Source: Eledone cirrhosa
Taxonomy: Eukaryota
Assembly (NCBI GenBank): GCA_964016885.1
Contig: OZ024759.1
Coordinates: forward strand, 5,084,001 to 5,148,000
DNA: 64,000 nt
Direction of reading: 5' to 3'
Shown here in pieces: positions 7,112 to 63,396 of the stretch. Each line of letters starts with the position of its first letter. The stretch's first letter is position 1. The translations under genes and the position numbers were made by a program. A model generated the notes under the pieces. The model had not been told where the DNA came from. It made no database searches and worked only from the letters and a program-made list of their open reading frames with translations.

Positions 7112-7339
7112 TTAATCTGTAACTCTACTGCCCCTGCTACTCACATCTTCCTCATGATCAACATTTAACATTCACTTCCCCTGTAACCAAGAGTGGGATG
7201 TGTCAACAGAGACCGACTCAGAACTTAATCGGAGCTACTGACCTCTCAGATGTTACTGATACATTTCATCATGACTGAAGAGGACATTCATCCATTTGTC
7301 TGGTAGATTCTCTAAAGAAATAGAACTACAAAAGAGCAC

Positions 7340-16300: not shown

Positions 16301-19300
16301 AACACACCTGTCTGATAGATGATACCTTATAACCAGGACCACACCATCTACTGGAACACACCTGTCTGACAGGTGCTACCTTATAACCAGGACCACACCA
16401 TCTACTGTAACACACCTGTCTGATAGATGATACCTTATAACCAGGACCACACCATCTACTGGAACACACCTGTCTGACAGGTGCTACCTTATAACCAGGA
16501 CTACACCATCTACTGTAACACACCTGTCTGATAGATGATACCTTATAACCAGGACCACACCATCTACTGTAACACACATGTCTGACAGGTGCTACCTTAT
16601 AACCAGGACCACATCATCTACTGTAACACACCTGTCTGATAGATGATACCTTATAAACAGGACCACACCATCTACTGTAACACACCTGTCTGACAGGTGC
16701 TACCTTATAACCAGGATCACACCATCTACTGTAACACACCTGTCTGACAGCTGCTACCATGTAACCAGTACCACACCATCTACTGGAACACACGTGTCTG
16801 ACAGGTGCTACCTTATAACCAGGACCACACCATCTACTGTAACACACCTGTCTGACAGCTGCTACCTTATAACCAGGACCACACCATCTACTGGAACACA
16901 CCTGTCTGACAGGTGCTACCTTATAACCAGGACCACACCATCTACTGTAACACACCTGTCTGATAGATGATACCTTATAACCAGGAGCACACCATCTACT
17001 GGAAGACACCTGTCTGACAGGTGCTACCTTATAACCAGGACCACACCATCTACTGTAACACACCTGTCTGATAGATGATACCTTATAACCAGGACCACAC
17101 CATCTACTGTAACACACATGTCTGATAGCTGCTGCCATATAACCAGGACCACACCATCTACTGTAACACACCTGTCTGATAGATGATACCTTATAACCAG
17201 GACCACACCATCTACTGTAACACACCTGTCTGACAGGTGCTACCTTATAACCAGGACCACACCATCTACTGTAACACACCTGTCTGACAGGTGCTACCTT
17301 ATAACCAGGACCACACCTTCTACTGTAACACACCTGTCTGACAGGTGCTACCTTATAACCAGGACCACACCATCTACTGTAACACACCTGTCTGACAGGT
17401 GCTACCTTATAACCAGGACCACACCTTCTACTGTAACACACCTGTCTGACAGGTGCTACCTTATAACCAGGACCACACCATCTACTGTAACACACCTGTC
17501 TGACAGGTGCTACCTTATAACCAGGACCACACCATCTACTGTAACACACATGTCTGATAGCTGCTACCTTATAACCAGGACCACACCATCTACTGTAACA
17601 CACCTGTCTGACAGCTGCTACCATATAACCAGGACCACACCATCTACTGTAACACACCTGTCTGATAGATGATACCTTATAACCAGGACCACACCATCTA
17701 CTGTAACACACCTGTCTGACAGGTGCTACCTTATAACCAGGACCACACCTTCTACTGTAACACACCTGTCTGACAGGTGCTACCTTATAACCAGGACCAC
17801 ACCATCTACTGTAACACACCTATCTGACAAGTGCTACCTTATAACCAGGACCACACCTTCTACTGTAACACACCTGTCTGACAGGTGCTACCTTATAACC
17901 AGGACCACACCATCTTCTGTAACACACCTGTCTGACAGCTGCTACCATATAACCAGGACCACACCATCTACTGTAACACACCTGTCTGATAGCTCCTACC
18001 TTATAACCAGGACCACACTATCTACTGTAACACACTTGTCTGACAGGTGCTACCTTATAACCAGGACCACACCATCTACTGTAACACACCTGTCTGATCG
18101 ATGATACCTTATAACCAGGACCACACCATCTACTGGAACACACCTGTCTGACAGGTGCTACCTTATAACCAGGACCACACCATCTACTGTAACACACCTG
18201 TCTGATAGATGATACCTTATAACCAGGACCACACCATCTACTGTAACACACATGTCTGACAGGTGCTACCTTATAACCAGGACCACATCATCTACTGTAA
18301 CACACCTGTCTGATAGATGATACCTTATAAACAGGACCACACCATCTACTGTAACACACCTGTCTGACAGGTGCTACCTTATAACCAGGATCACACCATC
18401 TACTGTAACACACCTGTCTGACAGCTGCTACCATGTAACCAGTACCACACCATCTACTGGAACACACGTGTCTGACAGGTGCTACCTTATAACCAGGACC
18501 ACACCATCTACTGTAACACACCTGTCTGACAGCTGCTACCTTATAACCAGGACCACACCATCTACTGGAACACACCTGTCTGACAGGTGCTACCTTATAA
18601 CCAGGACCACACCATCTACTGTAACACACCTGTCTGATAGATGATACCTTATAACCAGGAGCACACCATCTACTGGAAGACACCTGTCTGACAGGTGCTA
18701 CCTTATAACCAGGACCACACCATCTACTGTAACACACCTGTCTGATAGATGATACCTTATAACCAGGACCACACCATCTACTGTAACACACATGTCTGAT
18801 AGCTGCTGCCATATAACCAGGACCACACCATCTACTGTAACACACCTGTCTGATAGATGATACCTTATAACCAGGACCACACCATCTACTGTAACACACC
18901 TGTCTGACAGGTGCTACCTTATAACCAGGACCACACCATCTACTGTAACACACCTGTCTGACAGGTGCTACCTTATAACCAGGACCACACCTTCTACTGT
19001 AACACACCTGTCTGACAGGTGCTACCTTATAACCAGGACCACACCATCTACTGTAACACACCTGTCTGACAGGTGCTACCTTATAACCAGGACCACACCT
19101 TCTACTGTAACACACCTGTCTGACAGGTGCTACCTTATAACCAGGACCACACCATCTACTGTAACACACCTGTCTGACAGGTGCTACCTTATAACCAGGA
19201 CCACACCATCTACTGTAACACACATGTCTGATAGCTGCTACCTTATAACCAGGACCACACCATCTACTGTAACACACCTGTCTGACAGCTGCTACCATAT

Positions 19301-22090
19301 AACCAGGACCACACCATCTACTGTAACACACCTGTCTGATAGATGATACCTTATAACCAGGACCACACCATCTACTGTAACACACCTGTCTGACAGGTGC
19401 TACCTTATAACCAGGACCACACCTTCTACTGTAACACACCTGTCTGACAGGTGCTACCTTATAACCAGGACCACACCATCTACTGTAACACACCTATCTG
19501 ACAGGTGCTACCTTATAACCAGGACCACACCTTCTACTGTAACACACCTGTCTGACAGGTGCTACCTTATAACCAGGACCACACCATCTTCTGTAACACA
19601 CCTGTCTGACAGCTGCTACCATATAACCAGGACCACACCATCTACTGTAACACACCTGTCTGATAGCTCCTACCTTATAACCAGGACCACACTATCTACT
19701 GTAACACACTTGTCTGACAGGTGCTACCTTATAACCAGGACCACACCATCTACTGTAACACACCTGTCTGATAGATGATACCTTATAACCAGGACCACAC
19801 CATCTACTGGAACACACCTGTCTGACAGGTGCTACCTTATAACCAGGACCACACCATCTACTGTAACACACCTGTCTGATAGATGATACCTTATAACCAG
19901 GACCACACCATCTACTGTAACACACATGTCTGACAGGTGCTACCTTATAACCAGGACCACATCATCTACTGTAACACACCTGTCTGATAGATGATACCTT
20001 ATAAACAGGACCACACCATCTACTGTAACACACCTGTCTGACAGGTGCTACCTTATAACCAGGATCACACCATCTACTGTAACACACCTGTCTGACAGCT
20101 GCTACCATATAACCAGTACCACACCATCTACTGGAACACACGTGTCTGACAGGTGCTACCTTATAACCAGGACCACACCATCTACTGTAACACACCTGTC
20201 TGACAGCTGCTACCTTATAACCAGGACCACACCATCTACTGGAACACACCTGTCTGACAGGTGCTACCTTATAACCAGGACCACACCATCTACTGTAACA
20301 CACCTGTCTGATAGATGATACCTTATAACCAGGACCATACCATCTACTGGAACACACCTGTCTGACAGGTGCTACCTTATAACCAGGACCACACCATCTA
20401 CTGTAACACACCTGTCTGATAGATGATACCTTATAACCAGGACCACACCATCTACTGTAACACACATGTCTGATAGCTGCTACCATATAACCAGGACCAC
20501 ACCATCTACTGTAACACACCTGTCTGATAGATGATACCTTATAACCAGGACCACACCATCTACTGTAACACACCTGTCTGACAGCTCCTACCTTATAACC
20601 AGGACCACACTATCTACTGTAACACACTTGTCTGATAGCTGCTACCTTATAACCAGGACCACACCATCTACTGTAACACACCTGTCTGACAGGTGATACC
20701 TTATAACCAGGACCACACCATCTACTGTAACACACCTGTCTGACAGCTGCTACCTTATAACCAGGACCACACCATCTACTGTAACACACCTGTCTGACAG
20801 CTGCTACCTTATAACCAGGACCACACCATCTACTGTAACACACCTGTCTGACAGGTGCTACCTTATAACCAGGACCACACCATCTACTGTAACACACCTG
20901 TCTGACAGGTGCTAACTTATAACCAGGACCACACCATCTACTGTAACACACTTATCTGACAGGTGCTACCTATTAACCAGGACCACACCATCTACTGTAA
21001 CACACCTGTCTGACAGGTGCTACCTTATAACCAGGACCACACCATCTACTGTAACACACCTGTCTGATAGACGATACCTTATAACCAGGACCACACCATC
21101 TACTGTAACACACCTGTCTGACAGGTGCTACCTTATAACCAGGACCACACCATCTACTGTAACACACCTGTCTGACAGCTGCTACCTTATAACGAGGACC
21201 ACACCATCTACTGTAACACACCTCTCTGACAGGTGCTACCATATAACCAGGACCACACCATCTACTGTAACACACCTGTCTGATAGATGATAACTTATAA
21301 CCAGGACCACACCATCTACTGTAACACACCTGTCTGATAGATGATACCTTATAACCAGGACCACACCATCTACTGTAACACACCTGTCTGACAGGTGCTA
21401 CCTTATAACCAGGACCACACCATCTACTGTAACACACCTGTCTGATAGATGATACCTTATAACCAGGACCACACCATCTACTGTAACACACCTGTCTGAT
21501 AGATGATACCTTATAACCAGGACCACACCATCTACTGTAACACACCTGTCTGATAGATGATACCCTATAACCAGGACCACACCATCTACTGTAACACACC
21601 TGTCTGACAGGTGCTACCTTATAACCAGGACCACACCATCTACTGTAACACACCTGTCTGATAGATGATACCTTATAACCAGGACCACACCATCTACTGG
21701 AACACACCTGTCTCACAGGTGCTACCTTATAACCAGGACCACACCATCTACTGTAACACACCTGTCTGACAGGTGCTACCTTATAACCAGGACCACACCA
21801 TCTACTGTAACACACCTGTCTGACAGGTGCTACCTTATAACCAGGATCACACCATCTACTGTAACACACCTGTCTGACAGGTGCTACCTTATAACCAGGA
21901 CCACACCATCTACTGTAACACACCTGTCTGATAGATGATACCTTATAACCAGGACCACACCATCTACTGTAACACACCTGTCTGACAGGTGCTACCTTAT
22001 AACCAGGACCACACCATCTACTGTAACATACCTGTCTGATAGATGATACCTTATAACCAGGAACACACCTTCCACTGGAACACACACCTG
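7340..22090. repeat. 54-bp minisatellite, about 270 copies, exon-derived, with higher-order structure
   Basis: Unit cctgtctgacaggtgctaccttataaccaggaccacaccatctactgtaacaca. Variant patterns recur at 1674 bp (31 units) and 5886 bp (109 units). Confidence 0.98.
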
Positions 22091-28647: not shown

Positions 28648-31600
28648 TTATTAGAAATATGGTAATGAAAGGGTTAATGACATAGACAGTGTCTTTCATT
28701 AGAAATATGGTAATGAAAGGGTTAATGACATAGACAGTGTCTTTCATTAGATATATGGTAATGAAGGGGTTAATGACATAGACAGTGTCTTTCATTAGAT
28801 ATATGGTAATGCAGGGGTTAATAACATAGGTAGTGTCTTTCATTAGATATATGGTAATGAAAGGGTTAATGACATAGACAGTGTCTTTTATTAGATATAT
28901 GGTAATGAAGGGGTTAATGACATAGACAGTGTCTTTCATTAGATATATGGTTATGAAAGGGTTAATGACATAGGTAGTGTCTTTCATTAGAAATATGGTA
29001 ATGAAAGGGTTAATGACATAGACAGTGTCTTTCATTAGATATATGGTAATGAAGGGGTTAATGACATAGACGGTGTCTTTCATTAGATATATGGTAATGC
29101 AGGGGTTAATAACATAGGTAGTGTCTTTCATTAGATATATGGTAATGAAAGGGTTAATGACATAGACAGTGTCTTTTATTAGATATATGGTAATGAAAGG
29201 GTTAATGACATAGACAGTGTCTTTCATTAGATATATGGTAATGAAGGGGTTAATGACATAGACGGTGTCTTTCATTAGATATATGGTAATGCAGGGGTTA
29301 ATAACATAGGTAGTGTCTTTCATTAGATATATGGTAATGAAAGGGTTAATGACATAGACAGTGTCTTTTATTAGATATATGGTAATGAAGGGGTTAATGA
29401 CATAGACAGTGTCTTTCATTAGATATATGGTAATGCAGGGGTTAATAACATAGGTAGTGTCTTTCATTAGAAATATAGTAATGAAAGGGTTAATGACATA
29501 GACAGTGTCTTTCATTAGAAATATGGTAATGAAAGGGTTAATGACATAGACAGTGTCTTTCATTAGATATATGGTAATGAAGGGGTTAATGACATAGACA
29601 GTGTCTTTCATTAGATATATGGTAATGCAGGGGTTAATAACATAGGTAGTGTCTTTCATTAGATATATGGTAATGAAAGGGTTAATGACATAGACAGTGT
29701 CTTTTATTAGATATATGGTAATGAAAGGGTTAATGACATAGATAGTGTCTTTCATTAGATATATGGTAATGAAGGGGTTAATGACATAGACGGTGTCTTT
29801 CATTAGATATATGGTAATGCAGGGGTTAATAACATAGGTAGTGTCTTTCATTAGATATATGGTAATGAAAGGGTTAATGACATAGACAGTGTCTTTTATT
29901 AGATATATGGTAATGAAGGGGTTAATGACATAGACAGTGTCTTTCATTAGATATATGGTAATGAAAGGGTTAATGACATAGACAGTGTCTTTCATTAGAT
30001 ATATGGTAATGAAGGGGTTAATGACATAGACAGTGTCTTTCATTAGATATATGGTAATGCAGGGGTTAATAACATAGGTAGTGTCTTTCATTAGAAATAT
30101 GGTAATGAAAGGGTTAATGACATAGACAGTGTCTTTCATTAGAAATATGATAATGAAAGGGTTAATGACATATAGTGTCTTTCATTAGAAATATGGTAAT
30201 GAAAGGGTTAATGACATAGACAGTGTCTTTCATTAGATATATGGTAATGCAGGGGTTAATAACATAGGTAGTGTCTTTCATTAGAAATATGGTAATGAAA
30301 GGGTTAATGACATAGACAGTGTCTTTCATTACAAATATGATAATGAAAGGGTTAATGACATATAGTGTCTTTCATTAGAAATATGGTAATGAAAGGGTTA
30401 ATGACATAGACAGTGTCTTTCATTAGATATATGGTAATGCAGGGGTTAATAACATAGGTAGTGTCTTTCATTAGATATATGGTAATGAAAGGGTTAATGA
30501 CATAGACAGTGTCTTTTATTAGAAATATGATAATGAAAGGGTTAATGACATATAGTGTCTTTCATTAGAAATATGGTAATGAAAGGGTTAATGACATAGA
30601 CAGTGTCTTTCATTAGATATATGGTAATGAAGGGGTTAATGACATAGACAGTGTCTTTCATTAGATATATGGTAATGAAAGGGTTAATGACATATAGTGT
30701 CTTTCATTAGAAATATGGTAATGAAAGGGTTAATGACATAGACAGTGTCTTTCATTAGAAATATGGTAATGCAGGGGTTAATAACATAGGTAGTGTCTTT
30801 CATTAGATATATGGTAATGAAAGGGTTAATGACATAGACAGTGTCTTTTATTAGAAATATGGTAATGAAAGGGTTAATGATATAGACAGTGTCTTTCACT
30901 AGATATATGGTAATGAAGGGGTTAATGACATAGACAGTGTCTTTCATTAGAAATATGGTAATGAAAGGGTTAATGACATAGGTAGTGTCTTTAATTAGAA
31001 ATATAGTAATGAAAGGGTTAATGACATAGACAGTGTCTTTTATTAGAAATATGATAATGAAAGGGTTAATGATATAGACAGTGTCTTTCACTAGATATAT
31101 GGTAATGAAGGGGTTAATGACATAGACAGTGTCTTTCATTAGAAATATGGTAATGAAAGGGTTAATGACATAGGTAGTGTCTTTAATTAGAAATATAGTA
31201 ATGAAAGGGTTAATGACATAGACAGTGTCTTTCATTAGAAATATGGTAAGGAAAGGGTTAATGACATAGACAGTGTCTTTCATTAGAAATATGGTAATGA
31301 AAGGGTTAATGACATAGGTAATGTCTTTAATTAGAAATATAGTAATGAAAGGGTTAATGACATAGACAGTGTCTTTCATTAGAAATATGGTAATGAAAGG
31401 GTTAATGACATAGACAGTGTCTTTCATTAGAAATATGGTAATGAAAGGGTTAATGACATAGGTAATGTCTTTAATTAGAAATATAGTAATGAAAGGGTTA
31501 ATGACATAGACAGTGTCTTTCATTAGAAATATGGTAAGGAAAGAGTTAATGACATAGACAGTGTCTTTCATTAGATATATGGTAATGAAAGGGTTAATGA

Positions 31601-32695
31601 CATAGACAGTGTCTTTCATTAGAAATATGGTAATGAAAGGGTTAATGACATAGACAGTGTCTTTCATTAGAAATATGGTAATGAAAGTGTTAATGACATA
31701 TACAGTGTCTTTCATTAGAAATATGGTAATGAAAGGGTTAATGACATAGACAGTGTCTTTCATTAGAAATATGGTAATGAAAGGGTTAATGACATAGACA
31801 GTGTCTTTCATTAGAAATATGGTAATGAAAGGATTAATGACATAGGTAATGTCTTTAATTAGAAATATAGTAATGAAAGGGTTAATGACATAGACAGTGT
31901 CTTTCATTAGAAATATGGTAAGGAAAGAGTTAATGACAGACAGTGTCTTTCATTAGATATATGGTAATGAAAGGGTTAATGACATAGACAGTGTCTTTCA
32001 TTAGAAATATGGTAATGAAAGGGTTAATGACATAGACAGTGTCTTTCATTAGAAATATGGTAATGAAAGGGTTAATGACATATACAGTGTCTTTCATTAG
32101 AAATATGGTAATGAAAGGGTTAATGACATAGACAGTGTCTTTCATTAGAAATATGGTAATGAAAGGGTTAATGACATAGACTGTGTCTTTCTTTAGAAAT
32201 GTGGTAATGAAAGGGTTAATGACATATACAGTGTCTTTCATTAGAAATATGGTAATGAAAGGGTTAATGACATAGACAGTGTCTTTCATTAGAAATATGG
32301 TAATGAAAGGGTTAATGACATATACAGTGTCTTTCACTAGAAATATGATAATTGTTTCTACTTTTGGCACAAGGCCTGCAATTACCCAGTCTATTACTGG
32401 TACTTTATTTTATCGACCCCATAAGGATGAAAGGCAAAGTTAACCTCGGCGGGATTTGAACTCAGAATGGCAAGGGCCGTAACTCTATGCGTCAAAGCAT
32501 GGCGTCCGACCCTCTACCGATACTGCCAATCCAATTAGATATATGATAATGAAAGGGTTAATGACATAGACAGTGTCTTTCATTAGAAATATGGTAATGA
32601 AAGGGTTAATGACATAGACAGTGTCTTTCATTAGAAATATGGTAATGAAAGGGTTAATGACATATACTGTGTCTTTCATTAGAAATATGGTAGTA
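28648..32695. repeat. 48-bp minisatellite, array 3 (about 80 copies), interrupted by a SINE at about 32350-32533
   Basis: Same unit as arrays 1 and 2, with variant blocks. Confidence 0.96.
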
Positions 32696-32969
32696 GGAAG
32701 TTTAATTACTATACTGACAGTTGCTACCTTCATAACCAGCAGCACATCCTCCACTAGAGCATACACCTGTCTCTATGTTACACCTGATGTTGTTTTGTTT
32801 CAATATATTAAGCTACAGACTAAGCTATACTACACAACACACTTCATTGGAACACACACCTGTCTCTGTGTTACATCTCGCTGTTTGTTACACGTCTCTG
32901 TATGTTACACCTGCTGTTGTCTTGACCCACTATATTAAGTTATAAACAAAGCTATACTACACCACTTAC

Positions 32970-33107
32970 CTGTCTGACAGTTGCTACCTTCATAACCAGC
33001 AGTACATCCTCCACTAGAACACACACCTGTCTGTTTGTTACATTTACTGTTGTCAACACAGTGACATGTGTTGCCACAGTTGGCTCCAAATATACCATTT
33101 CTACAGA
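32970..33107 (-). CDS. EGF-like exon (138 bp)
   Basis: ttccacag|..CRNGIFGANCGNTCHCVDNSKCNKQTGVCSSGGCTAGYEGSNCQT G|gtaagt. Confidence 0.85.
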
Positions 33108-33805
33108 CTGTGGAAATAAAAATATGAGAACAATGACAACAACAACAACATATAACACTATACAAGATAATCATCATCTTCATCATTACCATTTAATGTC
33201 CATTTTCTATGCTAGCATGGGTTAGATATACTGTCCCATTGTGAGAAAAGTTGGGTCAGATGGCCATGTCTTGCTTATGCAGAACTGATTTGGGATTGGT
33301 TTTGATGGCTGGATGCCCTTCCAAATGCCAACCACTTTACAGTGTGGACTGGGCACTTTTTGTTGTGTCACCAACTTGACCACTTTACAATGAGAGCTGA
33401 GCACTTTTTGTTGTGGCATTATCACAACCATTTTACAGTGTGTGCTGGGCACTTTTTGTTGTGGCACTATCACAAGCACTTTATAGTGTGGGCTGGGCAT
33501 TTTTGTTGTGGCACTATCACAACCACTTTACAATGAGGGCTGGGCACATTTTGTGTCACCAACATGACCACTTTACAGTGTGGGCTGGGCATTTTCGTTG
33601 TGGCACTATCGCAACCACTTTACAGTGTGGACTGGGGACTTGAGTGGGGCAGTTGCATGGGGATTGAGGAGGTAGATTTAGGGGCATGGGTGAGGGGTGG
33701 GGATTTAGTAGCTCACTGACCTTTCTTCAACCCATTCTCACACTGGCTACTGTGCTTTCAGAACACCTTCATCCACTGCAAGTAACAGAAACTATGTACC
33801 ACTTC

Positions 33806-33996
33806 TTCATAACCAGCACCACACCCTCTACTGTAACACACCTGTCTTACAGTTGCTATCTTCATAACCATCACCACACACTTCACTGGAACACACACCT
33901 GTCTCTGTGTTACATCTAGCTGTTTGTTACACCTGCTGTTGTTAGTACAGTGACATGTGTGTTTACAGTTAGGTCCAAATTTACCTGCTTTACACC
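33806..33996 (-). pseudogene. Degenerate EGF exon with internal duplications and no canonical donor
   Basis: ttttcag|..CKAGKFGPNCKHTCHCTNNSRCNKQ, then an insertion/frameshift and a tandem duplicate of the exon 3' part. Confidence 0.75.
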
Positions 33997-34159
33997 CTGA
34001 AAATAAAAATATGGAATGTTCTGCATGAGCATGTGGTCGAAGGACAGCTCCTTGCTCCGATAAATCATGTCACTTCTAACACATGTAGCATACATGTTTC
34101 CCTTCCATGTAATAACCCAATATATTAAGTTAGAAACAAAGCTATACTACACCACTTAC

Positions 34160-34296
34160 CTGTCTGACAGTTGCTACCTTCATAACCAGCAGCACATCCT
34201 CCACTAGAACACACACCTGTCTCTTTGTTACACCTGCTGTTATCAGCACAGTGACATGTGTATTTACAGTTGGGTCCAAATTTACCTGTTTACAGA
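34160..34296 (-). pseudogene. EGF-like exon with 1-bp deletion (137 bp)
   Basis: Splice sites are intact, but TGT AAA CAG GTA replaces TGT AAA ACA GGT. The deletion is in an A-run, so it could be a sequencing error. Confidence 0.7.
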
Positions 34297-35031
34297 CTGT
34301 GGGTATAAAATATGAGAACAATGACAATTACAGCAACATATAACACTATACAAGATAATAAATATCATAATTATATCATCTATATATATGGTGGCACATG
34401 GCTTAATGGTTAGAGCATTGGCCTTGCAATTGAAAGGTTGTGAGTTCAATTCTCAGACCGGGTGATGTGTTGTTTCCTTGAGCAAGACACTTTATTTCAC
34501 ATTGCTCCAGTTTACTCAGCTGTAGAAATGAGATGATAGGGACTGGGGTCCCTATCATTCCACTGTAAAGTGGTCGTGGAGGTGCCATGGCAAAAAAGCA
34601 CCCACTACTCACTGTAAATAAGGTTGGTGTTAGGAAGGACATCCAGCTGTAGAAATCAAGCCAGAATCAGTTTCCGTCCCACCCTTGCAAGCAGGGAAAA
34701 GCGAACGTAAAATGATGATGAGTCTAACCCATGCTGGTGTGGAAGATGTACGTTATACGAAGATGATGATGATATAGTGTTGTCATCTATCATCTATACT
34801 ATATCTCTACAACCTATATGATATCTATATCCTATATATTATATCTAATCATCTGTATTATATCTATATCATCTGTATTATATCTATATCATCTGTATTA
34901 TATCTATATCATCTGTATTATATCTATATCATCATAACCAGCATCACACCTGTCTCTGTCTGTTTTTTTACACCTGCTGTTGTTTTGTTTCATATATCAA
35001 GTTAGAAACAAATCTGTACTACAGTACTTAC

Positions 35032-35169
35032 CTGTTTGACAGTTGCTACCTTCATAACCAGCAGCACATCCTCCACCTGAACACACACCTGTCTCTTTGT
35101 TACACCTGCTGTTATCTGCGCAGTGACATGTGTATTTACAGTTGGCTCCAAATTTACCTGTTTTACAGA
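35032..35169 (-). CDS. EGF-like exon (138 bp)
   Basis: ttttcag|..CKTGKFGANCKYTCHCADNSRCNKETGVCSGGGCAAGYEGSNCQT G|gtaagt. Confidence 0.85.
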
Positions 35170-35385
35170 CTGAAAATAAAAATATGGAAGTCTAAATATA
35201 TTTAATAATTCACATTAATTTCTGATATTTTCATATTTTACATGGTAGACATTATTTGAATTTTGAAAATGTGAGACCAGAGAAATTGCTTCATGTGACA
35301 CTGTAAGAAAACATTAAAGAAAACATTAAAAAAATGAAATGTATATCTTCTTCTTTATCATTAAGAATGTCAGCAGCAGCAGCAC

Positions 35386-35419
<34 letters not shown>

Positions 35420-36168
35420 CAGAGAGAGAGAGAGAGAGAGAAGAGAGAGAGTAGTTAATAATAAATACAAAGACCAAAATCTAGAGAGGGCTCAATAAGA
35501 TAAGAGTTTTATGTATATGTATATATATACATATATATGTATCATCATCATCATCATCATCATTTTACGTCCACTTTTCCCTGGTTGCGAGGGTGGGACG
35601 GAAACTGATTCTGGCTTGATTTCTACAGCTGGATGCCCTTCCTACCACCAACCTTATTTACAGTGAGTGCTGGGTGCTTTTTTGCTGTGGCACCTCCACG
35701 ACCACTTTGCAGTGGAATGATAGGGACCGCAATCCCTATCATCTCATTTCTACAGCTGAGTAAACTGGAGCAATGTGAAATAAAGTGTCTTGCTCAAGGA
35801 AACAACACATCACCCGGTTTGAGAATTGAACTCACAACCTTTCGATTGCAAGGCCAATGCTCTAACCACTAAGCCATAGAGAGAGAGAGAAGTGAGAGAG
35901 TAGTTAATAATAAATAGAAACACCAAAATCTGGAGAGGGCTCAATAAGATAAGAGTTATATATATATATATATATATATATACACTCAATACATAAACAG
36001 AGAAAGCCTTAAGCGATACTCTGACCAACACCATCTCACTCAACAAACATTAGGATATACCTAAGTATTATCCCAATTTAGTGTTTGGGGTGCTAACTAA
36101 TCAGTATTTCGTGGATAGCTGGTTGTATTATTTTATATGAGACATTATTAAATAAATATCTCTTTCCC

Positions 36169-36292
36169 TCCAGACGGCCGTTTCATTATAAGATTTCTAC
36201 AATTTGGAATAAATAATTTCCAGGTTATGTAGAAACTTGTATATAATCCATAGTTTTATACACAAGTGGGCTCTTATAAACTCATCAGTGGA
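36169..36292 (-). ncRNA. Type-I minimal hammerhead ribozyme motif, copy 1
   Basis: UCCA-CUGAUGA-[GUUUAUAAGA...UCUUAUAAU]-GAAAC-GGCC-GUC^UGGA: stem I, conserved core and palindromic stem III (ACGGCCGU). Confidence 0.8.
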
Positions 36293-37475
36293 TGCCCAAA
36301 TAATATCGATATAAGAATTATATCGACATTAATAGATTAGTGATGGTCTCCCTCAACGCTAAGAAGAGACTGGTAGTTCAGAAAATCCAGCAGTCCTCTC
36401 AAAGATAAAATACATGCTGTACCCAAAAGGGTAAAGGGAGGTCATCTTAAAATAAACCAATATACACGCTGGTCATTTAAACCTGTTAGGTATTAACCAC
36501 ATGTATAAGAACTCAATTGGATAGTAAAAGAATAACTATATGTATACACAACCAATGCACACATAGAGATAACACATAATAAATACATGTATGGATCCCC
36601 CATATACACACACAGCCACTCTCTAAGGCTAAATCAGACATGGGATACAAGGAAGATCAATCAGTATTTCATATAAAAAATAATAATAATAAAGTGCAGG
36701 GTGATAAAAATTAACGGTAGCCACGGAGCAGGCAGACTCAGAAAAACCTGGGATGACTTGATAAATTCCGACCTCACACCTCTCCAAGACAATGTCACTG
36801 GACCGAGATCTTTGGCGCCACACAGAAGACCCGCCTTGCCTAAGTACAAAGCGAAACCTACAGTCAGTAGGCACCTCTAACAAAATACACCCCTGTCCCA
36901 CTACCCCACCCCATCCACACCACCCCCTTAAATGTGAAGTTATGTTGGTACCACAACATCCAGTCCGAAACAAATGAGGTTGTGTAGGTGTCACAACAGA
37001 AAAAACACACAGTCCACGCTGTAATGTGGCCGTGTAGGTAACACGGTAAAAACCTCCCAGTCCACACTGTAAACGTGGTTGGTGTTAGGAAGGGCATCCA
37101 GCCATAGAAAACTTGCCAGTCAGTCCTATACGAGCAGGACAACGAATATTGCCTCAAGTGGGAAAACTCCCGTCCAAACCCATGCAAGCGTGGAAGATGG
37201 ACGTTAAACGATGATAATGATGATGATGATGATGATGAAAGAGAGTCATACCTTATATCTGGAAATCATATCTGGCCACCAAGAGTATATATTCAATACA
37301 TAAACAGAGAAAGCCTTAAGCGATACTCTGACCAACTCCATCTCACTCAACAAACATTAGGATATACCTAAGTATTTTCCTAATTTAGTGTTTGGGGTGC
37401 TAACTAATCAGTATTTCGTGGATAGCTGGTTGTATTATTTTATATGAGACATTATTAACTAAATATCTCTTTCCT

Positions 37476-37599
37476 TCCAGACGGCCGTTTCCTTATAAGA
37501 TTTCTACAATTCGGGATAAATAATTTCCAGGTTATGTAGAAACTTGTATATAATCCATAGTTTTATACACAAGCGGGCTCTTATAAACTCATCAGTGGA
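37476..37599 (-). ncRNA. Type-I minimal hammerhead ribozyme motif, copy 2
   Basis: UCCA-CUGAUGA-[GUUUAUAAGA...UCUUAUAAG]-GAAAC-GGCC-GUC^UGGA. Confidence 0.8.
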
Positions 37600-37857
37600 T
37601 GCCCAAATAATATCGATATAAGAATTATATCGACATTAATAGATTAGTGATGGTCTCCCTCAGCGCTAAGAAGATCCAGCGCTTAGAAAATCCAGCAGTC
37701 CTCTCAAAGATAAAATACACGCTGTCCCCAAGAGGGTAAGGGGAGGTCATCTTAAAATAAAACAATATACACGCTGGTCATTTAAACCTGTTAGCTATTA
37801 ACCACGTGTATAAGAACTCAATTGGATATTAAAAGAACAACTATATGTATACACAAT

Positions 37858-37905
<48 letters not shown>

Positions 37906-38127
37906 CAAATATTTCAAATATTTCAGATCAGTGGTTGGCGTTGGGAAGGGCATCCAGCCGTAAAAAAACAGTCAGAAACTCTCGTATATGAGCGAGACAT
38001 GGTCACTTGACCCAACATGCCTCTAAATGGGACAACCCTGTCTAACCCATGCTAGCATGGAAGATAGACGTTAATTGATGATGATGATGATACATACATA
38101 TATATATAGCTACATTACACCACTTAC

Positions 38128-38265
38128 CTGTCTGACAGTTGCTACCTTCATAACCAGCAGTACACCCTCCACTGTAACACACACCTGTCTCTGTGTTACA
38201 TTTGCTGTTGTCTGCACAGTGACAATTTCTACTACAGCTGGGACCAAACTTTCCTACAGGACACA
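38128..38265 (-). CDS. EGF-like exon (138 bp)
   Basis: ttctatag|..CPVGKFGPSCSRNCHCADNSKCNTETGVCYSGGCTAGYEGSNCQT G|gtaagt. Confidence 0.9.
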
Positions 38266-38359
38266 CTATAGAAAATATTTAAAATTCACTTCTAATATTC
38301 ACTCACTTTTTTCAGGTAACATGTTTGATGTTTGTAAAACCTATGAAGACCTGCACTAT

Positions 38360-38405
<46 letters not shown>

Positions 38406-38537
38406 TATACATATATATATATACACATATATATACATATATATATATATACACATATATATATACATATATACTGAAGTAAAAGTTAAGTGGAAATATC
38501 CAAGAGTAAGAGCACTCAGTCCATAGGACGAGTTTAG

Positions 38538-38717
38538 TATAAATAATTACAACAGTGACATAAACAGGTACTCAAGTTTGAATGGGTTCTGGGCCCCAAT
38601 TTCTTCAGCCTGTCATGAGATGTTTTCCATTTTCCTCATGACAGGCTGAAGAAATTTGGGGCCGAGAACCCAACGAAACTTGAGTACCTGTTTATGTCAC
38701 TGTTGTAATTATTTATA
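38538..38717. repeat. Inverted repeat, arms about 80 bp
   Basis: aataattacaacagtgacataaacaggtactcaagttt...cagcctgtcatgag / ctcatgacaggctg...aaacttgagtacctgtttatgtcactgttgtaattatt. Confidence 0.92.
38641..38691 (+). ncRNA. Type-I minimal hammerhead-like motif in the right arm of an inverted repeat
   Basis: ACAGG-CUGAAGA-aau-UUGGG(gccgagaa)CCCAA-c-GAAAC-UUGA-GUA^CCUGU. The base of stem II is irregular. Confidence 0.65.
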
Positions 38718-38859
38718 TCTATATACATATATATATATATATATATATTCAAAATTAATTAAATTAAATTAAATTAGATTAAGGGAGTCATGTCCAAGAC
38801 ATGCGCCATATCCACCGTAGAATAAGCTCAAAGATTTCAATGAATAGATCCGAGCATTT

Positions 38860-39187
38860 TATATCAACTAGAAATAGATTGACATATATATATATTTAAA
38901 ATAAACACATGAAACAATGACAGGGTATAATTTGTAAAGTGTGTAATCACACATAGCTAGGTAGGTAACTAATTAAAGTTTAACTAGAGCTTCAAATATT
39001 TCCTTTTTAAAAAATTAATCATTTTTTAATTATTTTTTAAAAAGGTAATATTTGAAGCTCTAGTTAAACTTTAATTAGTTACCTACCTAGCTATGTGTGA
39101 TTACACACTTTACAAATTATCCCCTGTCATTGTTTCATGTGTTTATTTTAAATATATATCTATGTCAATCTATTTCTAGTTGATATA
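38860..39187. repeat. Near-perfect foldback palindrome, arms about 155 bp (MITE-like)
   Basis: tatatcaactagaaatagattgacat...gagcttcaaatatt is mirrored by aatatttgaagctc...atgtcaatctatttctagttgatata. Confidence 0.93.
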
Positions 39188-39814
39188 TATATATATATCC
39201 AGGGAGTGTAACATGAAGTTACTGTAGGTTCACCCAGGTGAGCACTCAATCTTTAGATTCTCGTCCATCATTACAACAGCAGAGGTCCGACGACCTTTTG
39301 ATTCCTCAGTCTGGCTAGATCAATACTGATCAAACTTTGAGCTGAGCAATAGCAAAACGTGCATCACCAATCAATAAATGTAATGAAGGCTTAACAAATC
39401 GTCATTGTATTATTATTATTATACACACACACACACATATATATGTATATATAAATATATATATATATATTTATATATATATCACAGAAAAAAAGATAGG
39501 AAAATCTGCTTCATAGAATCAAAACGTATCTGAGGACCTTGCGATTTTCAGAGTCAGGTTTGATCATCACATCGATCGTGCCTCGAGCTGGTCGCCAGAG
39601 AAACAATTGTAATATGTCCAATAAATTCCATTCGTCGCAACACTGATTCCCTTCTTTTCTGTGACATCATACTCTGCTCTATGAGAGCATTGAGTGCTCA
39701 AATGGCCTACCTCATACGGACACTTTAAGCATCCAACACCAATTATATATATATATATACACACACACATATATATACACACCCACACACACATATATAT
39801 ATACACATATGTAT

Positions 39815-39855
<41 letters not shown>

Positions 39856-39869
39856 TATATATACACACC

Positions 39870-39908
<39 letters not shown>

Positions 39909-39942
39909 GTATACACATATATATATATATATATGTACACAC

Positions 39943-41172
39943 CTCATCATCATCAGGTCGAGCTTGCTCGGCTTTCTACGACACGTTTCCTCCATCCATC
40001 TCTGTCTCTCATAGCGTTTGCCAGTTCTTCCGCAGTGCATCCAGTATCATCCTCAAGTTGCTTGACGTATAACAACACATCACCTGCTATAACAACACAT
40101 CACCTGCTATATCTTCCTTGCTGCGCCAACAGTGGCCAGCAAATCTGAGTCTCTGTCCACGTATTGACCTCCTGATAGGTGGTATATTGCCATAGAGATC
40201 CTTATTTGTTGGGTGTTCCCTCGAAGACACATTTAAAGCAGCGTGGAGCATACGTGTGTATGCCCCGTCTAGCTTTTTCTCCAGTTTTGACGTTAGCGTC
40301 CAAGTGATAGAGCCATAAACAAACACAGACTCCACAGCAGCTCTGAAGAAATTCCTTTTCAGTTTGACCGGCAGGTTTGATTTCTATATCTTCTCCATTG
40401 CATTCAATGCTCCCCAGGCTTTTCCCAGTCTGTTGTTAACATCATGTTCTGTGGAGGCGATATAGCTACCCAGGTATTTGAAGTCGTCAACTTGCTTGAT
40501 TATATCGCCGTTTAGACTTCGCATACCAACTGAGGAGTCTTGGTTCAGGCAAATATATTCTGTTTTGCCTGTGTTGACATAGAGTCGGATTTCCTTTGCA
40601 ACTGATTCGATGCTGTGAAGTAGTGATGTTGCATCCTTAAGGTAGTCAGCGAGGACCGCTAAATCATCCGCATAGTCAGCATCGGTGATTTTCTGAGCTG
40701 CATGGCGTCTACACTTTCACTTTGTGAGAGTGAAACCAAGCTCTAAGTTTTCGTCCAGGGCTTTTCTCAATACATAGTCGAGGCAGATGATAAAAAATGT
40801 ATGGTGCAAGAGTATCCCCTTGGAGTACTCCTGCAATGATGTCAAAGAAGTTGGTATCTCCATCAGGTGAGCGCACCATTGCGCAGGTGTTTTTATATAA
40901 CATCATGATGGCATTTACTGTTTCCCTTGGCAAGCCGTAGGCTAGAAGTATCTCTCTCATCCTCCCACGATGGATGGAATCGAATGCTTTTGAAAAGTCA
41001 ATAAACAGGAGAGTTGCTGGGAGGTTTGGGCTTTTACACCTTCCAAGATACGCCGAATAGTAAGTATTTGCCCTGATGTTGATCTGTTGGTGCGGAAGCC
41101 CTTTTGGTTTTTTCTCAGCAAGGGGTCAATGACAGATCTTATTCTGTCAAACAGCATGAGATTGTATATCTT
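39943..41172 (-). mobile_element. 5'-truncated RTE-clade LINE (decayed RT) with (GAT)n tail
   Basis: Fragments LRKNQKGFRTNRST..ILTIRRILE, DFSKAFDSI, GVLQGDTLAP, YADD, KYLG and RLRFAGHCWR, with frameshifts. Confidence 0.88.
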
Positions 41173-41263
41173 TGCGTGTGTGTATATATATACACACACA
41201 CACACATATATATGTATACACACACACACATATATACTGTAATATACATCATAATATACATAC

Positions 41264-41397
41264 CATGGTGACAGTCAGGTCCCTGGTAACTGGGTTGACA
41301 ACCTCCACTGGAACACACACCTGTGATGAAGTTGTGGTGACATCAGCACAGTGGCAGGTTTCTTTACAGTTGAGGCCGTAGTTACCTTGACGACACT
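41264..41397 (-). pseudogene. Frameshifted EGF-like exon (134 bp, 4-bp deletion, weak GAG acceptor)
   Basis: CRQGNYGLNCKETCHCADVT, then a frame change to NFITGVCSSGGCQPSYQGPDCHH G|gtatgt. The fifth Cys codon is missing. Confidence 0.8.
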
Positions 41398-41419
41398 CTC
41401 AAATATTGGACATTATGCA

Positions 41420-42412
41420 CCAACATTACCACCACCACCACCACACCATCACCATCATCACCATTGTCCTCCTCACAACCACCACCAACATCACCAGCAC
41501 CACCACCACCACCAGCACCACCACCACCACCATCATCACCACCCCCAGCACCACCACCACCACCAGCACCACCACCACCACCACCACCATCATTCTTATC
41601 ACCATCACCACCACCACCATCATTCTTATCACCATCACCACCACCATCACCACCACCACCACCACCACCACCACCACCACCATCACCACCCCCATCGCCA
41701 CCACCATCACCACCACCACCACCACCACCACCACCACCACCACCACCACCACCACCACCGCCACCACCACCGCTACCACCACCACCACCACCACCACCAC
41801 CACCGACATCACCAACACCACCACCACTACCGCCACCGCCACCGCCACCACCACCACCATCACCACCACCATCACCACCACCACCATCACCACCACCACC
41901 ACCACCATCACCAACACAACCACCACCGCCACCACCGCCACCACCACCGCCACCACCACCACCATCACCACCGCCACCACCGCCACCGCCACCGCCGCCA
42001 CCGCCACCACCACCACCGCCGCCACCACCACCACCACCACCACCACCACCATCACCACCACCACCACCATCACCACCACCACCACCACCACCATCACCAC
42101 CACCACCACCACCACCACCACCACCACCGCCATCACCACCACCACCACCACCACCACCACCACCACCACCACCACCACCACCACCACCACCACCGCCACC
42201 ACCACCACCACCACCGCCATCACCACCACCGCCATCACCAACACCACCGCCATCACCAACACCACCACCATCACCACCATCACCACCACCACCACCACCG
42301 CCACCACCGCCACCACCGCCACCACCACCACCACCACCACCACCACCATCATCACCACCACCATCACCACCACCACCACCACCACCACCACCACCATCAT
42401 CATCACCACCAT
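41420..42412. repeat. About 1-kb imperfect (CAC)n/(GGT)n trinucleotide tract
   Basis: Read directly; it produces the poly-H/T/P/G/V ORFs. Confidence 0.98.
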
Positions 42413-42419
42413 CTGCGAG

Positions 42420-45400
42420 ATCAAAAATACTGTTGTGGTCCCATTCCATTACTTCACCAATCTTGTAGACATTAAATATTGTAATGGTCACTGTCCCTTC
42501 TCTTCCACCAATCTGGGAGTCACTAAATACTGTCATGGTTCCTGTTCCTCCCTCCAGTAATCTTGGAGACCCTAAATACTGTTGTAGTACCTTCCCATTC
42601 CTTCCACTAATTTTGGAGACCCTAAATATTGCAATGGGTACTGTCCCTTCCTTCCTTTCCATCAATCTAGGGGACCCTAAATACTGTTCTGGTCCCTGTC
42701 TCTTCTCTTCCACCAATCAGTGAGTCCCTTAATACTGCCGTGGTCCCTGTCTCTTCTCTTCCACCAATCAGTGAGTCCCTTAATACTGTTGTGGTCCCTG
42801 TCTCTTCTCTTCCACCAATCAGTGAGTCCCTTAATACTGTTGTGGTCCCTGTCTCTTCTCTTCCACCAATCAGTGAGTCCCTAAATACTGTTGTGGTCCC
42901 TGTCTCTTCTCTTCCACCAATCAGTGAGTCCCTTAATACTGTTGTGGTCCCTGTCTCTTCTCTTCCACCAATCAGTGAGTCCCTAAATACTATCATGGTC
43001 CCTGTCTCTTCTCTTCCACTAATCAGTGAGTCCCTTAATACTGTTGTGGTCCCTGTCTCTTCTCTTCCACCAATCAGTGAGTCCCTAAATACTATCATGG
43101 TCCCTGTCTCTTCTCTTCCACCAATCAGTGAGTCCCTTAATACTGTTGTGGTGCCTGTCTCTTCTCTTCCACCAATCAGTGAGTCCCTTAATACTGCCGT
43201 GGTCCCTGTCTCTTCTCTTCCACCAATCAGTGAGTCCCTTAATACTGTTGTGGTCCCTGTCTCTTCTCTTCCACCAATCAGTGAGTCCCTTAATACTGTT
43301 GTGGTCCCTGTCTCTTCTCTTCCACCAATCAGTGAGTCGCTAAATACTGTTGTGGTCCCTGTCTCTTCTCTTCCACTAATCAGTGAGTCCCTTAATACTG
43401 TTGTGGTCCCTGTCTCTTCTCTTCCACCAATCAGTGAGTCCCTAAATACTATCATGGTCCCTGTCTCTTCTCTTCCACCAATCAGTGAGTCCCTTAATAC
43501 TGTTGTGGTCCCTGTCTCTTCTCTTCCACCAATCAGTGAGTCCCTTAATACTGTCGTGGTCCCTGTCTCTTCTCTTCCACCAATCAGTGAGTCCCTTAAT
43601 ACTGTTGTGGTCCCTGTCTCTTCTCTTCCACCAATCAGTAAGTCCCTTAATACTGTTGTGGTGCCTGTCTCTTCTCTTCCACCAATCACTGAGTCCCTTA
43701 ATACTGTTGTGGTCCCTGTCTCTTTTCTTCCACCAATCAGTGAGTCCCTTAATACTGTCATGGTCCCTGTCTCTTCTCTTCCACCAATCAGTGAGTCCCT
43801 TAATACTGTCGTGGTCCCTGTCTCTTCTCTTCCACCAATCAGTGAGTCCCTTAATATTGTCATGGTCCCTGTCTCTTCTCTTCCACCAATCAGTGAGTTC
43901 CTTAATACTGTTGTGGTCCCTGTGTCTTCTCTTCCACCAATCAGTGAGTCCCATAATACTGTCGTGGTCCCTGTCTCTTCTCTTCCACCAATCAGTGAGT
44001 CCCTTAATACTGTTGTGGTCCCTGTCTCTTCTCTTCCACCAATCAGTGAGTCCCTTAATACTGTCGTGGTCCCTGTCTCTATCTTCCACCAATCAGTGAG
44101 TCCCTAAATACTGTTGTGGTCCCTGTCGCTTCTCTTCCACCAATCAGTGAGTCTCTTAATACTGTCGTGGTCCCTGTCTCTATCTTCCACCAATCAGTGA
44201 GTCCCTAAATACTGTTGTGGTCCCTGTCTCTTCTCTTCCACCAATCAGTGAGTCCCTTAATACTGTTGTGGTCCCTGTCTCTATCTTCCACCAATCAGTG
44301 AGTCCCTAAATACTGTTGTGGTCCCTGTCTCTTCTCTTCCACCAATCAGTGAGTCCCTAAATACTGTTGTGGTCCCTGTCTCTTCTCTTCCACCAATCAG
44401 TGAGTCCCTTAATACTGTCGTGGTCCCTGTCTCTTCTCTTCCACCAATCAGTGAGTCCCTAAATACTGTTGTGGTCCCTGTCTCTTCTCTTCCACCAATC
44501 AGTGAGTCCCTAAATACTGTTGTGGTCCCTGTCTCTTCTCTTCCACCAATCAGTGAGTCCCTTAATACTGTCGTGGTCCCTGTCTCTTCTCTTCCACCAA
44601 TCAGTGAGTCTCTTAATACTGTTGTGGTCCCTGTCTCTTCTCTTCCACCAATCAGTGAGTCCCTAAATACTGTTGTGGTCCCTGTCTCTTCTCTTCCACC
44701 AATCAGTGAGTCCCTAAATACTATCATTGTCCCTGTCTCTTCTCTTCCACCAATCAGTGAGTCCCTTAATACTGTCGTTGTCCCTGTCTCTTCTCTTCCA
44801 CCAATCAGTGAGTCTCTTAATACTGTTGTGGTTCCTGTCTCTTCTCTTCCACCAATCAGTGAGTCCCTAAATACTATCATTGTCCCTGTCTCTTCTCTTC
44901 CACCAATCAGTGAGTCCCTTAATACTGTCGTTGTCCCTGTCTCTTCTCTTCCACCAATCAGTGAGTCCCTAAATACTGTTGTGGTCCCTGTCTCTTCTCT
45001 TCCACCAATCAGTGAGTCCCTTAATACTGTCGTGGTCCCTGTCTCTATCTTCCACCAATCAGTGAGTCTCTTAATACTGTCGTGGTCCCTGTCTCTTCTC
45101 TTACACCAATCAGTGAGTCCCTAAACACTGTTGTGGTCCCTGTCTCTTCTCTTCCACCAATCAGTGAGTCCCTTAATACTGTTGTGGTCCCTGTCTCTTC
45201 TCTTCCACCAATCAGTGATTCCCTAAATACTGTTGTGGTCCCTGTCTCTTCTCTTCCACCAATCAGTGAGTCCCTTAATACTGTTGTGGTCCCTGTCTCT
45301 TCTCTTCCACCAATCAGTGAGTCTCTTAATACTGTCGTGGTCCCTGTCTCTTCTCTTACACCAATCAGTGAGTCCCTAAATACTGTTGTGGTCCCTGTCT

Positions 45401-57900: not shown

Positions 57901-58347
57901 ACGTGCATCCAGGATACCATTCCAGTCCCCCACTAAAAGCAAGGAGCTGGACGTTCCCAGAAAAGTTTCCAGATGTTGGAAGTATTCCGGCCGTGCTGCC
58001 CAAAAAGGGGCGTACGCAGCAATTAGTCTAAGGGCTCCACTTTCACTACTGCCGACTTCTAAAACCACCAGTCGACCCTCCGGGTCCAGGTGCACCTTCT
58101 GTATGGTGAGGCTCAGGTATTTTCGCAGCAGAACGACAACTCCACCCCCACCCCCCGGTTGACAGAGAGATGCGAAGATCTCAAAGTCGTCGAAGAGGGG
58201 CGCCAGTTGGCGCTCGCTGCTGATCCTGGACTCGCAAATAGCCATTACATCCATTCTATGCGACCTGAGATCGTTTAAAAGTTTGCCTTGTTTCCAAGAC
58301 AGTCCCAGGCCGCGTACATTCAGACACCCAACTCTTATATCAGCCAT
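54943..58347 (-). pseudogene. LINE ORF2 (APE endonuclease + reverse transcriptase + zinc finger), disrupted
   Basis: CLNVRGL, LLVGDWN, SYLDRIL, YSDH; KSPGVDGLPYE, LDQSKAFDRVDH, QGCPLS, YADD; CPRC..HAFVHC. In-frame TGA at 57139-57141 and frameshifts near 56840 and 55400. Confidence 0.93.
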
Positions 58348-58352
58348 GTTGG

Positions 58353-63059: not shown

Positions 63060-63138
63060 TTCTAGAGGGAAGTGAAATTGTAAAGTGTAACAGGCAAGAA
63101 GACAACATTTTTCCAAACAAACAAAAAAACCAACTTAC

Positions 63139-63396
63139 TATCAATATAGTTATAATATATCCTTAGTTGGGAAATATCGTATGTTTGTCTGAGTTCAAGA
63201 GTCCACAATGATGTTGGAGAGCTCATTGTATGAGAACAAGATCTGTGTTGTGGGTTTTGATCGAAGTTACCATCTACAGCCAGGTTAGCTGACATTGAGT
63301 ACATTTCATTGCGACAAACATTGTTTTTCATTAGAATTACACTGCTTGTTTTGTCTGTCGTGGTTTGTGTAGCTACTTTACCAATAGCTATATTTC
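63139..63396 (-). CDS. Exon: N-terminal part of F-type lectin-like domain (258 bp, phase 1-1)
   Basis: tttttcag|GA AAT ATA GCT ... ATT GAT A|gtaagt. Translates NIAIGKVATQTTTDK...SANLAVDGNFDQNPQHRSCSHTMSSPTSLWTLELRQTYDISQLRIYYNYID, matching the FTP pattern N-x-A-x-GK / A-x2-AVDG / C-x-HT / W-x3-L. Confidence 0.88.

Follow-up and report, generated by a model that had tools for sequence, protein, structure and literature searches.

Introduction

The systems described so far that are closest to the locus analysed here are the non-LTR retrozymes of animals, the hammerhead-bearing Penelope-like elements and, in outline, the LTR retrozymes of plants. Animal non-LTR retrozymes (Cervera and de la Pena 2020, PMC7229834; Li, Clavereau, Pollet 2026, bioRxiv 10.64898/2026.07.22.740005) are described as non-coding AT-rich head-to-tail repeats with one type-I hammerhead per monomer and without a primer-binding site (PBS) or purine tract (PPT), which occur as monomers, dimers and few multimers together with Penelope elements; all these features are shared by the repeat family reported below. 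Its monomer of 765 bp is longer than the 150–450 bp given in PMC7229834 and falls within the range of 51–972 bp given in bioRxiv 10.64898/2026.07.22.740005. The latter source argues that animal retrozymes are non-autonomous Penelope derivatives, places about 43% of the Xenopus retrozyme copies in introns and reports cleavage in one of nine dimers. Unlike animal non-LTR retrozymes, the present family has a 97-nt branched helix II to which Rfam is silent, and most of its copies are dispersed, truncated at the 5' side and bounded by a fixed internal 3' end in (TA)n. Tandems (two ribozymes in 4 of 96 sampled copies) are also fewer than in classic retrozymes.

The hammerheads in Penelope pseudo-LTRs (PMC4209133), in the Poseidon element PAc (PMC11167929) and in an element of the same genome (locus L086, see below) share with this family a short helix I, a long helix II, a palindromic helix III, partial tandems forming pseudo-LTRs, an internal 3' end downstream of the ribozyme and AT-rich targets. 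For the Poseidon element, initiation at an internal position of this kind was demonstrated in vitro (PMC11167929), and a (TA)n bias is reported for the Neptune and Naiad clades (PMC8557442). Unlike Penelope-like elements, the 765-bp family contains no RT or GIY-YIG ORF and has no detectable similarity to the Penelope ends examined. Cleavage in vivo by Penelope-type hammerheads and the movement of retrozymes via circles are stated to be open questions in the accounts of PMC4209133, PMC8557442, PMC11167929 and bioRxiv 10.64898/2026.07.22.740005.

Plant LTR retrozymes, as described in PMC4918200, resemble the locus only as a picture, namely two hammerhead-bearing direct repeats around non-coding sequence. 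According to that description they carry type III ribozymes, true LTRs with a conserved internal region, a PBS and a PPT, and 4-bp target-site duplications. Here, in contrast, the open helix is helix I (type I), the interior is monomer plus a locus-specific LINE, and neither a PBS nor a PPT was found at the locus. Both of its ends lie in (TA)n, where a target-site duplication would be hidden.

The locus is located in a 64,000-nucleotide stretch of contig OZ024759.1 of Eledone cirrhosa (positions 5,084,001–5,148,000), which is called the window below. It is very probably an inserted animal non-LTR retrozyme, namely 1.75 copies of a non-coding hammerhead repeat of 765 bases, which was likely copied into (TA)n by a Penelope-type RT and later split by a LINE fragment; its local ribozymes are predicted to be weakened. 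The period, the copy structure, the lack of an ORF, the LINE insertion, the mutations and the states of the paralogs were computed directly.

Repeat Pair and Host Gene

Two direct repeats of about 570 bp, offset by 1307 bp, were aligned and found to be identical in 543 of 571 columns (95.1%), in agreement with the sequence-only reading, which had reported the pair with a hammerhead in each (Table 1). On the minus strand, both contain UCCA-CUGAUGA...GAAAC-GGCC-GUC^UGGA, which is predicted to fold as a type-I hammerhead; CUGAUGA and GAAAC are separated by a 97-nt insert in both cases. A 15-mer across the cut site gave 363 exact matches in the 3.0-Gb genome searched versus 0 for the reversed control; therefore, the hammerhead motif does not occur by chance.

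The element is flanked by two exons with AG/GT borders, whose EGF identity is based on weak Pfam matches, and a weak F5/F8-type lectin match was found upstream in the host gene (63065–63418). Since the flanking EGF exons are also located on the minus strand, the hammerheads are sense to the host pre-mRNA, as had been claimed. Both element ends lie within (TA)n, and any target-site duplication is hidden in the microsatellite.

Table 1. Features of the element and its flanks (window coordinates)
Feature	Position	Strand	Comment
Upstream repeat	37293..37861	-	first pass, 5'-truncated; enters the 765-nt monomer at about position 385, crosses the cut site and leaves at about 190
Upstream type-I hammerhead fold (predicted)	37476..37599	-	97-nt branched helix II, palindromic helix III, predicted cut 37480^37479
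Monomer past the internal ATATATA putative priming motif (not a unique core)	37238..37292	-	adjoins 36694 directly in dispersed copies
RTE-type (presumed) LINE 3' end, 5'-truncated, (GAT)n tail	36695..37237	+	inserted in the monomer (AAT)n tract; AAAG on both sides
Monomer resumed after the LINE insertion	36557..36694	-	from comparison with dispersed copies
Downstream repeat	35986..36556	-	second pass; stops at the fixed 3' end of the family
Downstream type-I hammerhead fold (predicted)	36169..36292	-	predicted cut 36173^36172
(TA)n target microsatellite, 3' end of the element	35957..35982	n/a	
(TA)n, 5' end of the element	37860..37902	n/a	
Host EGF-like exon upstream of the element, 138 nt	38128..38265	-	
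Host EGF-like exon downstream of the element, 138 nt	35032..35169	-	

Several other repeats were observed in this part of the host gene. An inverted pair of tRNA-like SINEs (34398–34721 and 35554–35877, 95% complementary) brackets the downstream EGF exon and could pair in the pre-mRNA, favouring exon skipping or editing; the copy at 35554–35877 is absent from the single-repeat paralogs described below. The neighbouring intron contains long palindromic MITE-like hairpins (38958–39087 and 38552–38702), and two broken LINE-like elements with endonuclease/RT frames are located in other host introns (54946–60239 and 40090–41274, minus strand). Among the intact 138-nt exons, the EGF exon copies at 34160–34296, 1559–1695 and 33806–33994 are frameshifted (137 nt) or internally duplicated. 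The host EGF array is turning over through exon duplication. In addition, a 14.7-kb array (7338–22085; 273 copies of a 54-bp unit) was found, the unit of which resembles the 3' half of the host EGF exon and is one base short of the exon frame; a related 38-bp array lies at 2788–4121.

Composition of the Spacer

The spacer between the repeats consists of about 190 bp of further monomer and a 543-bp LINE 3' end. A search with a 301-bp query gave 2902 candidates and 40 scored matches, and 30 loci were examined. Seven of them were near-identical across the host flanks, one more (L017) was a paralog, and 22 were dispersed. In the dispersed copies that reach far enough, position 36694 runs straight into 37238. 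The repeat-spacer-repeat arrangement was present in none of the 22 dispersed loci and was found only in segmental copies of the host gene. A further 30 dispersed loci were chosen by a monomer junction 19-mer (60 exact matches in total). None of these contained the 543-bp insert; by eye, the junction was direct in 28, and in two a different insert was found in the same (AAT)n tract.

The 543-bp segment belongs to a separate family (5007 candidates) with a (GAT)n end and variable flanks, for which no link to the hammerhead repeat was seen in any of 18 non-paralog loci. It shares 86% identity with the 3' end of a 4-kb element in locus L323, which has APE endonuclease and RT, and we take the fragment to be of RTE type from its C-terminal motifs. 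Expansion of RTE-BovB in octopuses is described in PMC8967140. The L323 element itself (L323:3300–7230) is a near full-length RTE-type LINE with endonuclease and RT, which is located in the same intron of single-repeat paralogs and represents an insertion separate from the window fragment.

A natural tandem in the genome (L137) has two cut-site motifs 765 bp apart. Because the dispersed copies join 36694 and 37238 directly and the natural tandem period is 765 bp, the locus is a 1.75-mer of the 765-bp monomer split by the LINE. The period agrees with the offset of the repeats (765 + 543 − 1 = 1307) within the ambiguity of the AAAG junction. Since it is a partial tandem that was later pushed apart by the LINE insertion, the repeat-spacer-repeat is not a mobile unit. 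Thus, the interpretation as LTRs around a non-coding core was replaced by that of a partial tandem, 543 bp of the supposed core being the separate LINE fragment.

The Dispersed 765-bp Family

Exact-word counts across the genome gave 606 places for a 19-mer at the 3' end and 363 and 301 for two hammerhead words, with 0 for the controls. Copy structure was analyzed in 95 loci, which account for 99 of the first 100 entries in the list of 606 places with the 3'-end word and yielded 96 chains. The 3' end is fixed: 93 of the 96 chains stop at monomer position 188–195, nearly all of them running into (TA)n, and their 5' ends are scattered along the monomer. A length of at least one monomer was found in 12 of the 96. 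Inside tandems, the sequence passes through the fixed 3'-end point (ATATATA). At polymorphic sites, the units within one tandem locus match in 238 of 255 cases, where 157 would be expected (43 pairs, with a few loci counted twice), which fits both passes having been copied from one template.

The monomer is AT-rich (33% GC), its longest ATG frame is 29 codons, so that it has no protein-coding capacity, and its circular fold has a z-score of −4.0 (30 shuffles). A 3' end fixed at an internal point beyond the ribozyme, truncation at the 5' side, a microsatellite target and partial tandems reproduce the layout of a non-autonomous Penelope-like element, and this dispersed multi-copy family co-occurs with autonomous Penelope elements in the genome. 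The retrozyme-like nature proposed in the sequence-only reading was borne out by the testable features of animal non-LTR retrozymes, and the family is very probably an animal non-LTR retrozyme (a non-autonomous Penelope-like element).

A sister family with a 707-bp monomer and about 77% identity was also found (2091 candidates, 1088 exact matches). In 84 of 86 insertions it stops at the same 3' position as the 765-bp family, and its arrays reach up to 3.6 copies. A third diverged subfamily, in tandem, was observed at L252:1020–1152 and L012:2891–3053; its helix II has a U.U at the base, and its first branch hairpin shows compensatory changes. Other hammerhead families are present in the genome as well: one with a U3-A8 core in the Neptune-like element of L086 (positions 2952 and 7931), and further ones at L081, L092, L096:8568–9562 and L142. 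Among these are a U3-A8 core with a 57-nt helix II and a 10-nt palindrome, and a tandem of about 500 bp with an internal (TA)n.

Predicted Ribozyme Fold and Covariation

The type-I assignment of the earlier reading was retained. Its description of the ribozyme as minimal was not, as helix II is a 97-nt branched arm with two extra hairpins. A scan against Rfam gave no hammerhead model at E ≤ 1 over 30000–45000 or at E ≤ 10 over 36000–37850. The model search that had been suggested as a check therefore found no match at the locus; the long helix II accounts for this silence, which does not speak against the fold.

Covariation was evaluated in 32 ribozyme sequences, and 9 of 39 named pairs were changed on both sides; the sequences span three or four subfamilies with few independent events, and the structure was drawn from the same sequences. 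The double-sided changes are located in helix I, in the 10.1-11.1 pair (G-C to A-U), in helix II and in two pairs of a branch hairpin. It was found that 94.8% of the cells were paired versus 32–47% in slid controls, and RNAalifold gave the same arms. Helix III is palindromic in three versions, namely GGCC, GATC (in a subfamily) and a longer bulged one. The double-sided changes, which represent few independent events, point to selection on the RNA fold during amplification.

Single-ribozyme folding z-scores were modest (−1.7 to −2.4), and the catalytic core is base-paired in the minimum-energy folds; activity can therefore not be read from folding alone. The palindromic helix III had been considered suited to a dimer, and modeling is in line with this. 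The double-hammerhead fold of the local sequence is nested, lies 10.1 kcal/mol above the minimum as compared with 23.4 for two monomers, and is thus 13 kcal/mol cheaper than the latter; the values for the intact tandem are 11.9 and 23.4 kcal/mol. Local dimer folding is therefore plausible and the LINE would be no bar to it, but the cores are compromised. From the topology of the modeled dimer, the core with the G.G mismatch described below would serve the downstream cut and the core with the G.U wobble the upstream cut.

Local Ribozymes in the Copies of the Host Gene

Position 11.1, which closes helix II, is C in the family (73 of 75 reads of that column in dispersed copies). In the upstream ribozyme of the window it is G (37492), forming a G.G mismatch with G10.1, and in the downstream ribozyme it is U (36185), forming a G.U wobble. 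The catalytic core, palindrome, cut triplet and helix I are otherwise intact in both. According to PMC4209133, the G10.1-C11.1 pair is highly conserved in Penelope hammerheads. Its loss need not abolish activity, since 10.1-11.1 is A-U in the sister family and U.U in one copy, and PMC7229834 reports cleavage by an axolotl ribozyme whose helix II likewise has a U.U at its base. Three sequencing runs of one sample, analyzed as contigs, had the family base, minus-strand C, at 37492 in nearly all depth, and the LINE part was far deeper than the repeat. A search of sequencing runs listed no RNA run with the sequence. These runs are probably DNA because introns are covered, and no expression-informative junction was found in them.

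The upstream host exon was found in 14 copies with 99–100% identity on four contigs; some of these copies may be assembly duplicates. The host gene segment is present in at least 14 near-identical copies on contigs C20 (3.97–5.25 Mb), C27, C16 and C22; ten are on C20, spaced roughly 105–130 kb apart with one larger gap. All 14 paralogs carry the insertion, and no empty site was found among them. Seven of the 14, including the window, have two repeats and the LINE, with G upstream and U downstream at position 11.1. One has C upstream but a broken palindrome, together with U downstream. The remaining six have one repeat only, with A at 11.1. The single repeat is a recombinant, since its 5' part matches the upstream repeat and its last bases match the downstream repeat. 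Thus, 11.1 is G, U or A in the upstream ribozyme of 13 of 14 paralogs and in the downstream ribozyme of 8 of 8.

By all core criteria, 30 of 58 dispersed ribozymes were intact versus 0 of 14 paralogs; as little more than half of the dispersed ribozymes are intact, the local decay is partly ordinary. We predict that both local ribozymes are weakened and that the host gene makes no use of them. The proposal that a cut here separates short and long host transcripts is not supported, since none of the 14 gene copies has an intact ribozyme and six have a single repeat. In addition, slow cleavage by intronic hammerheads left splicing in mammalian reporters unblocked according to PMC2995048 (citing Dye 2006 and Fong 2009), so an intronic hammerhead, even if working but slow, need not stop splicing.

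The occurrence of three derived bases at 11.1 in four lineage types of one insertion is a hint, post hoc and at a CpG site, of selection against a sense-strand ribozyme. It is also one of the observations behind an alternative that we consider unlikely while granting it some weight, in which some activity persists in the local tandem, with the G.U ribozyme cutting at the upstream site in the dimer fold. The tandem would then supply small amounts of retrozyme RNA or slightly depress host expression, a burden that selection is removing. The elements left intact in both window copies agree with this. However, the argument from 11.1 is limited to four lineage types, the active fold lies 10 kcal/mol above the minimum, and no dispersed progeny with the LINE insert was found among the 30 loci. 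The preferred reading is that of a retrozyme insertion with weakened ribozymes, and the local element would then be a decaying passenger and not a host switch.

Relation to Penelope-like Elements

A mobilising partner was searched for among 50 GIY-YIG loci and seven hammerhead-bearing ends, examined out of 10595 candidates, and no meaningful similarity of the monomer to Penelope was found in either set. Locus L086 contains an autonomous RT and GIY-YIG element, Neptune-like, with DKG and CX4CX2C motifs and hammerheads in both flanking repeats, 4979 bp apart. Its upstream repeat continues past CTAATATATA into the ORF, and its downstream repeat ends there in (TA)n. This layout is the same as that of the 765-bp family. 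Penelope ORFs adjoin 18 of 181 loci, on both strands and from several families. The neighbours at L100, L119 and L136 were considered as the partner and rejected as separate Penelope insertions in the same (TA)n tracts.

No ORF with RT and GIY-YIG was found between the repeats, and the unit is not an autonomous Penelope-like element. The repeat could instead be the pseudo-LTR of such an element lying outside the sample of 50 of 10595 loci, with the local tandem as a by-product. The short helix I, 8-bp helix II and palindromic helix III match the Penelope motifs given in PMC4209133, and the copies are mostly single and truncated. This explanation is nevertheless improbable, because copies longer than one monomer re-enter the monomer and never unique or coding sequence, and the same ORF-less period is kept in two diverged families (765 and 707). 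A local duplication of a Penelope terminus, which had been named as an outcome contrary to a retrozyme, describes the locus in part: a duplication is present, but it is the normal tandem of the family, and no Penelope ORF of its own adjoins it. The non-autonomous retrozyme insertion remains the preferred reading.

5' Ends at the Predicted Cut Site

The 5' ends were counted against a junction-spanning reference, leaving out eight starts in family A (765 bp) and three in family B (the sister family) that were judged to be split or continued. In family A, 12 of 86 passages stop 1–20 nt 3' of the cut site versus 4.3% per 20-nt bin elsewhere (binomial p = 3e-4), and one other bin is equally high (8 of 46). 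The pile-up in the sister family was tested as a prediction written beforehand: 12 of 87 stop in the same interval versus 3.1% (p = 2e-5), with 7.8% in the next-highest bin. Stops at position 0 or +1 number three in the sister family (0.27 expected) and one in family A (0.37 expected).

The simplest reading of these ends is that some templates were cleaved linear RNA, and the pile-up in both families is possibly a genomic footprint of cleavage in vivo. Alternatively, the ribozyme structure could stall the enzyme. Note that the stretch from +10 to +20 is rich in A and T, so that pairing with the (TA)n target is possible there. A cleaved template is not a given, since for PAc no RNA reads starting at the cut site are reported and cleavage was dispensable in vitro (PMC11167929); the 765-bp and sister families differ from PAc in that their genomic 5' ends pile up near the predicted cut. 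In the literature searched, mostly open papers, neither a hammerhead family in octopuses nor a clustering of 5' ends at the cut was found to be described.

Discussion

The origin of the family and of the locus can be outlined following models in the literature (PMC7229834, PMC4209133, bioRxiv 10.64898/2026.07.22.740005 and PMC11167929). A tandem transcript would fold as a double hammerhead via the palindromic helix III and cut itself once per monomer. A Penelope-type endonuclease would nick (TA)n, and reverse transcription would start internally at ATATATA, which lies some 190 nt from the cut site on its 3' side. If the RNA was cleaved and linear, run-off at the cut site would give short copies of about 180 nt; if it was circular or an uncleaved multimer, run-on round the monomer would give partial tandems resembling LTRs. 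At the present locus, a sense-strand intronic insertion would then have been hit by the LINE, both ribozymes would have lost the pair closing helix II, and 6 of 14 gene copies would have recombined to one repeat.

That the locus is rather an animal LTR-type retrozyme, the paired hammerheads of which set free an RNA of 1.3 kb and divide the host pre-mRNA into a short and a long form, is very improbable: the geometry, sense strand, two motifs, the cheaper nested double-hammerhead fold and the retention of both repeats in 8 of 14 gene copies would fit, but the spacer is monomer plus LINE, there are no TG...CA ends, primer-binding site or purine tract at the locus, the hammerhead is type I and not type III, the unit is restricted to paralogs of the host gene, the helix II closing pair is lost in both copies with six of 14 paralogs reduced to a single repeat, and slow intronic cleavage left splicing unblocked in the reporters of PMC2995048. 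The split 1.75-copy retrozyme also carries a warning, namely that partial tandems split by a LINE mimic LTR elements.

Taken by itself, the locus is an ordinary one, where a LINE sits in a decaying copy of a retrozyme, and the interest lies in the family with its branched helix II and 5'-end footprint. Tentatively, and with somewhat less than even confidence, we suggest that both families record an in vivo cut that defines the template, where a stop would correspond to cleaved linear RNA and run-through to ligated circles primed at ATATATA, that a conserved three-way-branched helix II was missed by Rfam, and that the host has repeatedly disabled the sense-intronic ribozyme. The branched ribozyme offers a concrete construct for the bench. 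With thousands of young copies, a fixed 3' end and countable 5' ends, the question of cleavage and circles becomes testable from the genome alone.
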